A stretch of 64,000 bases of DNA, from NCBI RefSeq assembly GCF_009931435.1, contig NZ_CP043414.1. One strand, written 5' to 3'. Shown piece by piece: positions 52,884 to 62,371 of this stretch. Position 1 is the stretch's first letter, and every line of letters starts with the position of its first letter. The DNA is from Escherichia coli. Lineage in GTDB: Bacteria > Pseudomonadota > Gammaproteobacteria > Enterobacterales > Enterobacteriaceae. The notes under the pieces are model-generated. The model ran no database searches. It was not told the DNA's origin and saw only the letters and a program-made list of their open reading frames with translations. Position numbers and translations under genes: made by a program.

Positions 52884-53405
52884 TTATTCATCGATGCATT
52901 TTATAGAATCATCAATGGCTACAATAGTACTATTAACTCTCCAATTTATATTTTTATTATCATTGCAAATATTAACTGAATCTATATCAATGATTTTTTT
53001 ATTTTTATCTTTTATTTTATTTACAGTTTCAATGCAATCAGCGACAAGTTGGTGTGGATTTAGATTCTTCAGATATGGTCTTATGATCTTTCCCTTGCTT
53101 AATAAATAGCATGTATAAGATTCGGAAAGTCCAGCATCTATTTTGTACATCATTATTCTAGATAAGGATGTGAGAAATGCCTTGTTATCATTAGCAGCCA
53201 TATATGCCAGTCCGAGTTCAGCCTCTGCGGCTTTACATGAAAAATAGCTAAGTGAACACGCTTTTCGTCCCTCTTGGGTACTGGCTGATATTAGTGCCCA
53301 TAATATTGCCTTGTCTGCCAAATCCAACTCTCTCTGAAATTGGTTTACAGTAACTGCATTCGCAGAAATAGAGAAAAAAAGCACAATTGTTAATAACCTT
53401 GCCAT
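52884..53405 (-). CDS. secreted (signal-peptide) protein, candidate immunity protein for the adjacent orphan toxin
   Basis: ORF track 173 aa, ATG start; N-terminal signal peptide MARLLTIVLFFSISANA; AT-rich; immediately downstream (4-nt gap) of the orphan toxin ORF, the usual toxin-immunity order. Confidence 0.55.
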   Translation of the reverse strand: MARLLTIVLFFSISANAVTVNQFQRELDLADKAILWALISASTQEGRKACSLSYFSCKAAEAELGLAYMAANDNKAFLTSLSRIMMYKIDAGLSESYTCYLLSKGKIIRPYLKNLNPHQLVADCIETVNKIKDKNKKIIDIDSVNICNDNKNINWRVNSTIVAIDDSIKCIDE

Positions 53406-53409
53406 ATTT

Positions 53410-53856
53410 CTAGTCCGTCACTGTTAATGTGTTATCTGGCTCTGAAAATATTAGCTCATTTAATTTTTGCATGTCATTAGATGAACCAGTTATACAACCC
53501 TCGGAACAGAATCGAGGTCCTAAAGATGGACCAAAAGCGTTTAAACAACTATGTATTAAAAATCCATCACGATTATACGTTTCTGTATTTGCTGACGGTA
53601 CTAAACGTATACCATTAGGTTTTCTATTAGTTGCTCCAGGACCATTAACATTCCAGGTCCATACCCCTTGAGGTATTGGGCCTCTATTTTGTAAGTGTGT
53701 ACAACCAGGATTATTTTTACATTGCATATTATTACCATTATTACCAGAGGCGACTGAAATAGTAAGCACACCATAAGAATTATCATCACCTGGTATATCT
53801 GAAACACACGAAAGCATACCTAAAGTTATGCTGTATAAACAGGTGGCTAATCCCAA
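53410..53856 (-). CDS. orphan Rhs C-terminal toxin domain, L,D-transpeptidase-like (Tlde1/DUF2778-like)
   Basis: ORF track 148 aa; no ATG at its head (track start is TTG). Contains ...GPIPQGVW...[30 protein letters not shown], i.e. His-x16-S-x-G-C, the arrangement of an L,D-transpeptidase catalytic motif. A roughly 35-codon Rhs core remnant ending ...[10 protein letters not shown] precedes it (53857-53960) in another frame. Confidence 0.5.
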
Positions 53857-58178: not shown

Positions 58179-61100
58179 TACATCACTCCGGTGAATACAA
58201 ATCTAATAAAACGTCCAATGTTATTTCCGGAGCACTTCATCTTACATGTTTCTAAAGAATCATTAGACCAGTCTTGGCAGTTTTTAAATAGCCCTAAATT
58301 TATAGGTGTGAATATATCAGGCAATACAGAATAACGCGGCCTTACCTCTTTAAACTTCCCTTTTAAACAGTTCTCCACACAACTATTATCGGTTTCAACG
58401 AGGTCACAACGGCCAGCAGCTTCTTTTGTATCATTACTTGCTTTACCTGGCCCCCATAGACCATCTCCTTTTGATTCTCCCCGTTGGTCTTGGCCACCAC
58501 AAGTATAGTCCCCTTTACCATCTGGGACACAAAGATATTGATGATAGAACAGATTCCCCCATATATCTGGACCGCTTCTTTCACCAGTTCCGCCCATTGA
58601 ATGCAGTGGCTTAATGCATTTTAGTGTTTCTAATCCTAATGGATCTATATTTGAGATCGGATTCAACGGATACTGATAAAAATTCCACCCGCCTTCCAGC
58701 CCAATCGGATCCTGAGTGATATACCGCCCCTGCAGCGGGTCATAATAGCGATGGCGGTTGTAATACAGGCCGGACTCCTCCTCATACTGCTGACCCGGCA
58801 GGCGGATGAGCTGCTGCAGCTGGTGCGGGTTCTCTTCATTCAGCAGGTTGCCCCACTCATCGTATTCTGCGCACCATTCTGTTGCCCCTTCCGTGCTGAC
58901 AAGCGCCAGCGGCAGGCCGCGATGGTCGCAGTGGTACAGGTGGATTTTTCGCGCCGGCGTGTACACCGGGTCCATCTGGTTTTGCATCTGCTCCACCGTC
59001 AGGCCGCACGATGCCAGCCAGCGGCGGCTTTCCTCACTCACCCGGTCAGCCAGGATTTCACTTTCCAGCCGGTCGGGCATCTGCACCAGCACCGGCGGGA
59101 ACACCACATGGCCACCGTCTTCACCGCCGGACTGCTGAAGAGCGTCCGCCAGGCTGCGGCGCTGCGTTTTCGCCAGCTCACCGGTGGCGGTTTCAACTCT
59201 GATGAGTGGTGCGAAGCTCCCCGGCTGATAAACCGTCTGGATGCGGGTTCTGTCGTTCTGTATCGTGGTCAGCCGGTCGCCGTCCCAGCCGTACCAGGTC
59301 ACTTCCGGTTTCCGTGACAGCGACATCCAGCCCGTCAGGTCCCGTTCACGCCGCCACACCCGTTTTGCCACCCTGCGGCCCAGCGGGTCGTAAAGATAGC
59401 GACTTTCGACCAGCGGCTCTGCATATTGTGTCCGCGTGTAGTGCACCAGCCGGTGCCGGCTGTCGTAATGGTACCGGTGAGTCCGCTCATCATCCGTGCG
59501 GATAACCCCTTCCGGGATGAGGTCGGTTTTCTCTGTCAGCCTGCCGTGACGGTCATACCGGTAAAGATAGTGCGCGTCACGGGCGATACGGTTATCCGGC
59601 CACATGCTGAGGGTGCTGTCCGGGTGCAGCTCCGGGTCGGGCAGGCGGTTACCTGCCGGGTCCGTGGCATACGGGATGCGGATATCCAGATTCGCTGCGG
59701 TGGTGTGAACGCCGGTCAGCCTGCCGGTGGTGCTGTAGCTGTAACTCCGGGTCTGGCGCGGGCTGCTGATGCGAATGAGTTCGCCGTTGTCGTTCCAGGT
59801 GTAATCGCGGTCATACTGCAGGCTGTTCAGGTGCTGGCTCTGTAACTGCCCGGCAGGGGTGTAAGCGGTGGTGAGTTCATAACGGCCGAAGCTGCGCAGC
59901 GTTTCCCGGTGCAGGCGGTCGCGGGTGAAATCCACCAGCGGTGTGTCGCCGAGTTTCATCCCTGCCAGGTAACCACTGCCATAAGTCAGCCATTCCACGG
60001 CGGGCAGGCTGTCCGGTATACAGCGGTTCGCCAGCCCCTGCGCGTTGTACGCATGTCTGGTTTCATGCTGCCAGAGCAGTGCTTCCGTCTGCGGGTGATG
60101 CACCGTCTGGCGCTCACCGGTCAGGCGGCCTTTCTCATCATACCCGTAATGCACCGTCACCCGGTGCCCTTCGCTGAGATGGCTGATGCCTGTCAGCCAG
60201 CCGCGTTCGTCGTACCGCCACTGTTCTGCGGTTTCACCATTCACCGTTCGCTGCGTGATGCGGTCTGCTTCGTCATAGTGCCAGTGGGTGACCAGTCCCT
60301 CATCCTCGCTGCGGATAAGTTTGCCGGTCAGGTCGTGGTGATAACGCTGTGTGCGGCCGTCAAAGCCGGTTTCCTGTATCAGCCGGTCGAGTACATCGTA
60401 ACGGAAGGTGGTGTGGCTGCCGTTTTCGTTTGTCAGGCGGATGACCCGTCCTGCAGCATCGTATTCCATACTGCGGGTCAGCCCGCCCTGCGTGGTACGG
60501 ACGGCCTTTCCCCACGCATCGTACTGTGCCCCGTATCTGCTGCCGTCCGGGGCAATGACGGTGGTCAGGTCACCGGCGGCGTTGTATTCATACCGCGTTT
60601 CATGGCCCTGCGTGTCTTTCACCGCAATTAACTGTCCATGGCTGTCGTATGCGCGGCACTGGCTCAGGCCTTCCTCGCGGTGCACCGCCGTCATCTGCCC
60701 GAAGCGGTCATGGTCATAACGGGTCTGGTAGCCGGAACAGTCGGTGAAGGTCAGCAACTGACCGTAACGGCTCCACGTCATGGTTTTCCGGCTGCCGGTG
60801 GCATCTTCCGTTGCGCAGGGGAAGTCACTGTGTGGATTATCATAACGGTAGCGGATGATATCGCCGTCAGGGGCAGTTTCCTGAATCAGACGGCCGGATT
60901 CATCATATTCCCGGCGTATTTCCAGCCCGTCAGGCCCGGTGGCTGACGTTAACTGGTTGTGGTGGTTATAGTAAAACGCCGATGCCCTGCCATCCGGCGT
61001 GGTGATGCGCGTGATGAGTCCCGTCACCACATCCGGGCTGTATTCTGTTGTCCGGCCTGCGGCATCCGTCTGTGTCCTGAGCCTGCCCACCGCGTCAAAC

Positions 61101-62371
61101 TGACTCTGCGTGACGCTGCCGTCCGCGTGTTCCTTTTTCACCACCCGCTTCAGCCCGCCTTCGCCTGCGGTATGCAGGACTTCATGGCGGTCCAGGCTGT
61201 CGGTGATGGTGATGCGGTCTTTCTCATACTGATACGTGTAGCTTAAGCCTGCCGGGTTTAGCTGTTCTGTCACCCGCCCGTCGCTGTCGTAACGGTAACG
61301 GATTTCCGGCCGGCCCGTGTGACGGTGCGCCACCATCCGGCCCCGGTATTTATCATCGTAAGTAAAGCTGCGCACCTGTGTATTGCTGCGGTCATACACC
61401 GCCGCCAGTTCGCCGCGCGGCGTCCAGCCATAGCGCACCAGCGGCGTGGCTGGCAGGTTGTCCGGGTATTCCGGGTCGTGCGTCAGCCACACGGCAGACA
61501 GACGGATACCGTTGTCCCGGCCATATTCCGTGTAGTCCGGCAGGGTATCAGGAAAAGCGGACTGTTCCGCCCCGCCGGAAGAGGCCTGCTGCCGGGCCTC
61601 TTCTGCCCGCTGCGCCTGCGTGGTCAGTGCCAGCCGGAAGTGACGCCCGGCACCATCCGTCACGCCGGTGATTTCGCCGCTGAATTCACCGGCGGCTTCG
61701 CGGTGAAACGTCTGTGTGCGCCCGAAGCGGTCCACCAGCCCGGTCAGTACCCGGTACGGCGGCAGCGGCGCGGGCAGCACCTCATCCGCCTCCGGCACCC
61801 GCTCACACCAGCCGAGTACCCACCACGGCCCCTGCGGACTGTTCGTCGCCAGATAACGATGCGGACTCAGGCGAAGCTCTTCCGGCAGCGCCTGCCAGAG
61901 TGCGGCCAGCCGGTGACCTTCATCCAGTCTCAGGACGCCGCCGCGCACCAGCCAGAGTGACTCGCTGCGGCTGTAACCGTCCTCACCGGGAAACAGGTGC
62001 TCAAAATACAGGCTTCTGCCGCCGTTATCACTGAGTATCAGTGTGTTATCGCGCAGCTGTAAGCGGATATCCGCAGGCATTTTCCAGCCGGGGCCGAGAA
62101 TACCCACCGGCGCGGGCGTTTTTGTCCGGTAACTGCTGTACGTGCGGGAGAGGATGAACGGCAGCGGTCCGGGCAGGGCAATGTCTGTCTCGCCGGGAAG
62201 GACCTTTGCACCGAGCAGGGGATTGACCGGATGGCCGGACGTCACCCCGCCGGGGCACACCGAACAGGCCACGCCGGTGGGGGCACCAATACGTACCCCG
62301 GCTGAACCCTGAACAATGCTACCGCCATACTGCGTCATGTCGCCCTGACGCGCCGCCGGTTTTCCGCTCAT
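58178..62371 (-). CDS. rhsA: full-length Rhs protein (PAAR-like N-terminus, YD-repeat core, variable C-terminal toxin)
   Basis: ORF track 1397 aa; N-terminus [42 protein letters not shown], long YD-repeat core, core ends ...[33 protein letters not shown] followed by a 146-aa cysteine-rich tail. Locus position between yibF and yibA as for rhsA in K-12. Confidence 0.9.
58627..59682 (-). repeat. dispersed repeat copy B (Rhs core 3' end in the full-length gene)
   Basis: Homologous to 56760-57815 and, over its last about 460 bp, to 55011-55485. Confidence 0.85.

Follow-up and report, generated by a model that had tools for sequence, protein, structure and literature searches.

Arrays attributed to C-terminal displacement in Rhs proteins consist of a full-length rhs gene followed by core fragments of varying length that are joined to unrelated, AT-rich tips (PMC2935791; 2011, PMC3150448). 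Missing start codons and frameshifts are frequent in these fragments, and the same tips are common to several loci and strains. In the model of Jackson et al., a circle excised by recombination between the core of the main gene and that of the next orphan integrates by a single crossover into a different rhs core (PMC2935791). In Salmonella Typhimurium LT2, a main gene and one orphan lie inside SPI-6, a type VI secretion system (T6SS) island, and share 522 bp of core, and rearranged subpopulations were obtained by experiment (Koskiniemi et al. 2014, PMC3967940). We analyzed a stretch of 64,000 nt of Escherichia coli DNA (hereafter, the window; contig NZ_CP043414.1 of RefSeq assembly GCF_009931435.1) in which positions 52884-62371 of the minus strand were occupied by a stacked array of this type. 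The array was flanked by two plus-strand neighbors, yibI-yibH (50927-52428) and yibF (62600-63208), and the interval between them is the chromosomal site of the E. coli rhsA element. The locus is the E. coli rhsA locus, very probably in an expanded state made by C-terminal tip displacement. No essential difference from the described displacement arrays was found, and the site is a clade I site. As in LT2, the repeats share a few hundred base pairs of core that are approximately 95% identical (1050 and 468 nt in the window); unlike the LT2 locus, that of the window is known from sequence alone.

The minus-strand open reading frames (ORFs) comprised one full-length rhs gene (the main gene) and three 5′-truncated rhs fragments (orphans 1, 2 and 3, with increasing distance from the main gene), each with its own tip and downstream gene. 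When the main gene was compared with the downstream DNA by BLASTN, three copies of its 3′ core were recovered, all of which stopped at the DPxGL boundary between core and tip. The copy in orphan 1 (57810-56761, 1050 nt) was 95.4% identical to main-gene positions 59677-58628, that in orphan 2 (55487-55021, 468 nt) was 93.2% identical to the main core, and that in orphan 3 (54027-53847, 181 nt) was 79% identical (E 2.5e-39). A preliminary description of the locus had proposed one full-length rhs gene plus three orphan tip/immunity cassettes, with core fragments of 1.07, 0.46 and approximately 0.1 kb; the ORFs and the BLASTN fragments bore out the layout, and the measured lengths of 1.05, 0.47 and 0.18 kb were close to those expected. 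A repeat search of the window recovered the same core families, with spacings of 1162, 1753 and 1867 nt. GC content alternated along the array between approximately 0.60-0.69 in the core segments and 0.27-0.42 in the tips and immunity genes. The four tips were mutually unrelated, and a small gene of its own followed each of them. This pattern is far beyond chance.

Alignment to K-12 separated the array into a shared and an extra part. At the K-12 rhsA locus, the sequence that starts within the rhsA core and extends past the Imm57 gene was collinear with window positions 52400-57810 (96.2% identity), and the remainder of K-12 rhsA and yibF was collinear with positions 58628-62700. The window consisted of the K-12 rhsA arrangement plus one module of 1867 nt, made up of 817 unique nucleotides and the 1050-nt core duplication. 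The toxin at the main position was, as previously proposed, an addition relative to K-12. The K-12 element (rhsA-yibA-yibJ-yibG, followed by yibV/yibU-type pseudogenes) occupies the same yibF-yibH site and is collinear with the window; unlike it, the window has the RhsC tip (C) and ybfB at the main position, with the RhsA tip (A) demoted to an orphan. The two loci also differ in that the Tlde1-like ORF and the Imm57 gene are intact in the window, and in that the YibJ tip (J) is broken by a different mutation in each. Orphan 3, which had likewise been taken for an addition relative to K-12, proved to be present there as pseudogenes: the corresponding K-12 stretch was collinear with the window at 92.5% identity and contained the core remnant, a Tlde1 region interrupted by two deletions (9 nt and 1 nt), and an Imm57 gene with a frameshift.

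The window was also collinear over 5708 nt (56788-62489) with K-12 rhsC-ybfB and the ybfO core fragment. The main tip, YbfB and the junction between ybfB and the 1.05-kb fragment are features that the window has in common with the K-12 rhsC-ybfB-ybfO-ybfC locus. That locus lies at a different site (ybfA-ybgA), and the orphan behind its ybfB carries the ybfO tip, in contrast to the RhsA tip of the window. The ybfB/core junction was shared by the window, the K-12 rhsC locus and strain 6409, and differed from that of K-12 rhsC by a 4-nt insertion or deletion. Thus, the boundary of the 1.05-kb fragment of orphan 1 appears to have been inherited from an rhsC-type locus and not made at the rhsA site.

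Comparison among strains gave the strongest support for successive displacement. In K-12, the A tip is carried by rhsA and the C tip by rhsC; the J tip is found in O157:H7 on the main gene of the rhsA site. In O157:H7 FRIK944, this site contained a main gene with the J tip, with yibG immediately behind it and then a Tlde1 remnant and an Imm57 pseudogene. The locus therefore existed in three nested states: J/Tlde1 in O157:H7, A/J/Tlde1 in K-12, and C/A/J/Tlde1 in the window. Successive tip displacement by homologous recombination, which the preliminary description had favored, is the best explanation of such a series at one locus.

Population frequencies were obtained from 5426 complete E. coli genomes. 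A full-length rhs gene was found beside yibF in 3352 of them. Approximately one-quarter of the sampled rows matched selA and yibF only, which indicates that no matching rhs gene is present at the site in those genomes. Exactly 30 genomes (~0.55%) matched the interval from ybfB through selA (57852-64000) at 100% coverage; in these, the main position of the locus is occupied by the C tip with ybfB. The same four-cassette order was found in only one genome, 2020CK-00188. In XH990, C/ybfB was followed by a B tip with yhhH and then by a yibA pseudogene; in strains 6409 and EC26, it was followed by a tipless core fragment of 1065 nt and then by Imm57. The 817-nt unit itself was far from rare (2778 of the 5426 genomes, nearly always once and mostly at the rhsC site), and the collinear order C tip-ybfB-1.05-kb fragment was found in at least 1664 genomes. 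Two alleles of the C unit were observed at the yibF locus, one 100-99.5% and the other 98.2% identical to that of the window, which implies that the unit was imported independently at least twice. A further tip type was observed at the same yibF site in strain CE2050 (L013 3345-7487); this fifth tip has an AHEMGH (HExxH-like) motif and is followed by a 136-aa ORF and an intact Imm57 gene.

From these comparisons, we infer the order and direction of events as follows. New tips would arrive as cassettes in which part of an rhs core precedes a tip and its immunity gene. The new tip would be joined to the main gene by RecA-type homologous recombination between the shared core sequences, and the previous tip would be pushed downstream as a 5′-truncated orphan that lacks the start codon and export region and keeps its immunity gene. 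In the first and oldest event, the Tlde1/Imm57 cassette would have been displaced by the YibJ/YibG cassette; in the second, YibJ/YibG would have been displaced by the RhsA-Ntox34/YibA cassette; and in the last, the RhsA cassette would have been displaced by the RhsC-tip/YbfB cassette, with the addition of the 1867-nt module. The rhsC-ybfB-ybfO type of the module junction suggests that a locus of this kind was the source of the module. A circle that integrated as in the model of Jackson et al. would be expected to give the array observed, and a double crossover with linear DNA would lead to it as well. This mechanism is the published model of C-terminal displacement (PMC2935791; PMC3967940), and all four cassettes have already been described.

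The length of the core fragments decreased with distance from the main gene, and the preliminary description had taken this decrease as the pattern expected of successive displacement. The decrease was real; it is not required by the displacement model and is not diagnostic of it. In the circular-intermediate model, the length of the orphan fragment is set by the homology arm of the displacing cassette (PMC2935791). Relative age is better judged from the falling identity to the main core (95%, 93% and 79%) and from the accumulation of lesions than from fragment length. Damage was greater in the older orphans, with a frameshifted tip in orphan 2 and a core full of stop codons in orphan 3.

The nearest competitor to successive displacement is contraction, in which the long array would be ancestral and the K-12 and O157:H7 arrangements would have been derived from it by homologous deletions that fused the main core to the next tip. 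The same repeats permit both insertion and deletion, and runs of perfect identity with the main core extend over 244 nt in orphan 1 and 82 nt in orphan 2. Fusion of main and orphan genes by recombination has been observed in Salmonella (Koskiniemi et al., PMC3967940), and strains 6409 and EC26 look like deletion products, since in both C/ybfB is followed by a tipless core fragment that is joined near Imm57. The distribution given above, however, agrees more with a rare secondary import than with an ancestral state: the C tip occurs at the locus in only ~30 of the 5426 genomes, while main genes with other tips number in the hundreds to thousands; it is present there as two distinct alleles; and the C-tip array has the junction typical of the far commoner rhsC locus. 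We therefore consider contraction unlikely. An older view of such orphans as relics, here as decayed tandem duplicates of full-length rhs genes whose 5′ parts were lost independently, is very improbable. It agrees with the 5′ truncation of all orphans and with the further damage to two of the three. It does not account for an excess over K-12 of exactly one repeat unit, with direct repeats on both sides, nor for an orphan 1 boundary that falls at the same nucleotide at different loci before three tips (ybfO, A and B), and duplication of a single gene would not give mutually nonhomologous tips. Least probable of all is an assembly artefact from collapsed or mis-joined rhs paralogues of different loci, as E. 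coli genomes do hold several near-identical rhs cores (a median of six matching places per genome) that short-read assemblers often mis-join, but the core copies diverged from the main gene at 48 of 1050 positions (orphan 1) and 32 of 468 (orphan 2), the ybfB/core, A tip/yibA/core and yibG/remnant junctions were each present in other complete genomes, and the independent complete assembly of 2020CK-00188 had the whole array at 99.4% identity between flanks that were just 98.1-98.7% identical to those of the window.

Several observations weighed against successive displacement, or against a functional array, and are given here together. The direction of change is unprovable from sequence, since recombination between the 1050-nt repeats could regenerate the K-12 order, which might then in principle be the derived one. 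The crossover point of the last insertion was not callable: when the two 1050-nt copies were compared with K-12 rhsA, rhsC and ybfO, their single-nucleotide polymorphisms formed a mosaic, probably by gene conversion among paralogues, and only the last ~50 nt before each tip were clearly tip-linked. A scan of the array for promoters and terminators gave counts no higher than those of shuffled sequences; for promoters of the orphans or the immunity genes, the signal did not exceed background (21 sites, compared with 15.5 +/- 3.7 after shuffling). With regard to the delivery route, the letters KPAARQGD were present in the main N-terminus, where the Pfam PAAR_motif match was very weak (E 0.22), and no T6SS, vgrG or chaperone gene was found in the 64-kb window. 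As for the cassette taken as oldest, none of the genomes examined had a full-length rhs gene that ended in a Tlde1 tip. The Tlde1 ORFs of the window and 2020CK-00188 differed at five codons, and every one of these differences was nonsynonymous, which argues against purifying selection; this ORF may be intact by chance rather than by selection.

The features of the array are listed below from the main gene outward.

Features of the rhsA locus in the window, in the order in which the array is read (minus strand)
Feature	Coordinates	Strand	Evidence or remark
Main rhs gene, full length, 1397 aa	58178-62371	minus	ORF; core plus RhsC-type tip
ybfB, 108-aa hydrophobic ORF	57852-58178	minus	Overlaps the rhs stop codon at 58178
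817-nt unit (RhsC tip, ybfB, 41-nt spacer)	57811-58627	minus	Absent from the K-12 rhsA locus by alignment
Orphan 1 (core fragment plus Ntox34 tip)	56371-57810	minus	ORF 56371-57579; frame open back to 57849
yibA, HEAT-repeat	55508-56365	minus	NCBIfam PRK09687
Orphan 2 (core fragment plus YibJ-type tip)	54523-55487	minus	260-aa ORF 54684-55466, then another frame 54523-54720
yibG, Sel1-repeat	54038-54511	minus	ORF; RefSeq label 'sel1 repeat family protein'
Orphan 3 core remnant, 181 nt	53847-54027	minus	BLASTN to main core
Orphan 3 tip, 148-aa Tlde1-like ORF	53410-53856	minus	Pfam Tlde1_dom
Imm57-family gene, 173 aa	52884-53405	minus	Pfam Imm57; signal-peptide-like N-terminus

The main protein matched the NCBIfam equivalog RHS_core over residues 1-1247 (2618 bits, cutoff 2000; profile positions 1-1261 of 1261). 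Matches to YD_repeat_2x (E 9.8e-39), to Rhs_assc_core over residues 1170-1247, and in Pfam to DUF6531 (E 5e-18), RHS repeats and the RHS domain were also found. The core/tip boundary PxxxxDPxGL was located at residues 1237-1247 (DPLGL, 1243-1247), and GC content fell across it from approximately 0.6 to 0.32-0.42. The RhsC-type tip has 155 aa when counted from DPLGL (58181-58645), of which 154 were the same in the tip of K-12 RhsC. YbfB, which shared 104 of its 108 residues with the K-12 protein, has three hydrophobic segments on the Kyte-Doolittle scale, and the same gene is labelled 'protein YbfB' by RefSeq in the 2020CK-00188 locus (L002). In every genome examined, ybfB accompanied the RhsC-type tip. 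Its position makes YbfB the presumed immunity protein for this tip; a literature search found no paper on the function of RhsC/YbfB.

Sequence and structure searches with the RhsC-type tip differed in reach. The tip had no Pfam match, no match in the PDB when searched as a single sequence, and none for the toxin part when searched by profile; a Foldseek search of the PDB was not significant. Sequence homologues were confined to Enterobacterales, and Foldseek found the same fold on Rhs tips of more distant bacteria. Three residues were invariant (His1257, His1277 and Cys1365), and the cysteine is part of an NCQDW motif with which a helix begins. This arrangement of His and Cys fits the H-box/NC layout of the permuted NlpC/P60 group of lipid-targeting toxins (LRAT/YiiX/TseH/Tox-Act1-like). 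A structural model of the tip likewise resembled a permuted NlpC/P60-like fold, and membership in the group is a hypothesis with moderate support. By extension, the tip may be a Cys-His enzyme that attacks membrane lipids from the periplasmic side, with multi-pass YbfB as its immunity factor. Such a combination of tip and membrane protein would parallel the lipid-targeting pair Tox-Act1/Imm-Act1 (PMC12994826), of which RhsC tip/YbfB, if the proposal is true, would be an Rhs-delivered analogue. This fold is the sole part of the analysis able to open a new experiment.

Orphan 1 was the best preserved of the displaced cassettes. Its core fragment (56761-57810) and its intact tip (56374-56778) were in frame and undamaged. 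No ATG was present, and the first possible start is the GTG at 57579. The tip matched Pfam Ntox34 (PF15606) over all positions of the profile (1-80 of 80; E 9.5e-43), and 134 of its 135 residues were the same in the tip of K-12 RhsA. YibA scored 465 bits against its NCBIfam model and was identical to K-12 YibA in 279 of 280 residues. The pairing of Ntox34 with Imm-HEAT is included in the catalogue of Zhang et al. (PMC3482391), and neutralization of RhsA-CT toxicity by YibA is attributed to Vlazny and Hill 1995, as cited in PMC3150448. YibA is the immunity partner of the Ntox34 tip.

In orphan 2, the YibJ-type tip was inactivated by the loss of one G from a run of five near position 54710. The K-12 YibJ tip has this run intact and instead has a nonsense change (CAA to TAA) 57 nt upstream. 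The different lesions indicate that the YibJ toxin was inactivated independently in the two strains, whereas yibG is intact in both. When repaired, the orphan 2 tip was identical to the tip of the O157:H7 main gene in 166 of 167 residues; it had no Pfam match. YibG was identical to K-12 YibG in 149 of 153 residues and has a signal-peptide-like N-terminus, and it is the presumed periplasmic immunity protein for the YibJ tip.

In orphan 3, the core remnant was interrupted by several in-frame stop codons and, at the DPLG junction, by a frameshift; it was out of frame with the Tlde1 ORF and shared with the main gene no identical run longer than 22 nt. The Tlde1 ORF, which was assigned a Tlde1-like L,D-peptidase domain, matched Tlde1_dom (E 7.1e-8) and YkuD (E 0.023) and is labelled 'tlde1 domain-containing protein' by RefSeq in 2020CK-00188. 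The catalytic motif of Tlde1 is HXX14-17-(S/T)HGCh (PMC9638812); the ORF reads IH-x15-SEGCI, in which the first His and the Cys are kept and Glu stands at the second His. In a phmmer search, it had no match to solved structures, including the solved Tlde1a. The Imm57 gene (Pfam Imm57, E 2e-44) was intact in the window and frameshifted in K-12, O157:H7 and 2020CK-00188; a pairing of Tox-LD-peptidase with Imm57 is listed in the catalogue of Zhang et al. (PMC3482391). Orphan 3 resembles the Salmonella T6SS pair Tlde1a/Tldi1a (PMC9638812) in its match to the Pfam Tlde1 domain, its similar His/Cys motif and its periplasmic-looking partner. Orphan 3 differs from that pair in being an Rhs tip and not a stand-alone effector, in the Glu for the second His, and in having Imm57 and not Tldi1 as the partner. 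A degraded fragment of an ISAs1 (H-repeat) transposase was observed at ~52531-52720, where the Rhs element has its distal edge and Imm57 is followed by yibH; the collinear locus of 2020CK-00188 has an annotation for it (L002, 1632-1821).

Only the main gene has a start codon together with the N-terminal and core parts for packaging and export, so that the cell should deploy the RhsC-type tip if the cassettes are expressed and delivered as predicted. The four intact immunity ORFs (YbfB, YibA, YibG and Imm57) would protect it when kin or competitors attack with any one of the four toxins. The signal-peptide-like starts of YibG and Imm57 and the hydrophobic segments of YbfB suggest periplasmic or membrane action for three of the toxins; for Ntox34, a cytoplasmic site of action is suggested. 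One toxin predicted to be fired and four immunity ORFs of putative function would bear on competition among strains in the gut.

The orphans differed in the prospect of a return to the main position. Recombination between the 1050-nt repeats could bring orphan 1 back into use and return the cell to the RhsA tip; the homology exceeds the 522 bp at 95% identity that were sufficient in Salmonella (PMC3967940). The repeats, which include the perfectly identical run of 244 nt, may act as a reversible RhsC/RhsA switch at a measurable frequency in populations. Orphan 2 could also recombine, through its shorter run, but its toxin is broken. For orphan 3, rescue through homology is improbable. That the RhsC tip is an NlpC/P60 lipid toxin and that the 1050-nt repeats are a reversible switch in populations is, as a joint proposal, tentative and somewhat doubtful.

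The module boundaries are those of the segment that would be excised from an rhsC-ybfB-ybfO locus, and they give direct sequence support for the published model of tip displacement. The three-step nested series of J, A and C has mainly illustrative value, as a neat teaching example and not as a discovery. The array is a rare allele, the same array is already present with annotation in a public genome, and neither its components nor its mechanism would surprise a specialist.

The genome with the same array, 2020CK-00188, gave no indication of a donor within the genome at the sites inspected. Its rhsC site (ybfA-ybgA; L009 9126-12147) was without rhs and contained only small ORFs, including a contact-dependent inhibition immunity gene, and its rhsD site was empty (rhsD and rhsB sites inspected: L010 3413-8178, L011 41771-45980). 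The main gene at the rhsB site was followed by ybfC and, from the annotation, appears to have a ybfO-type tip in the main position. In this lineage, tips have thus been redistributed between loci. The 817-nt unit was reported to match 2020CK-00188 a second time, and the place of that match was not found among the rhsC, rhsD and rhsB sites inspected. Mismatches between the window and 2020CK-00188 clustered in patches of the rhs core (56938-57027, 59693-59731 and 60868-60875) that look like gene-conversion tracts from other rhs paralogues.

The remaining window was ordinary E. coli backbone, which included mtl, lld, cysE, secB and the waa cluster, among others. An origin from an Escherichia other than E. 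coli, raised by a mean identity of only 93% over a 22-kb flank, was rejected given the 98.1-98.7% identity of the flanks to 2020CK-00188; the low mean was due to a variable gene for a YadA-like adhesin. Within this large gene, a 255-nt tandem repeat (42302-42834; 2.1 copies, with an internal periodicity of 42 nt) was observed, whose copy arrangement differed from that of 2020CK-00188. A second tandem repeat, with a unit of 135 nt (48177-48466; 2.1 copies, 93% matching), was located between mtlA and mtlD, shortly after the stop codon of mtlA, and was rich in palindromes that resemble repetitive extragenic palindromic (REP) sequences.

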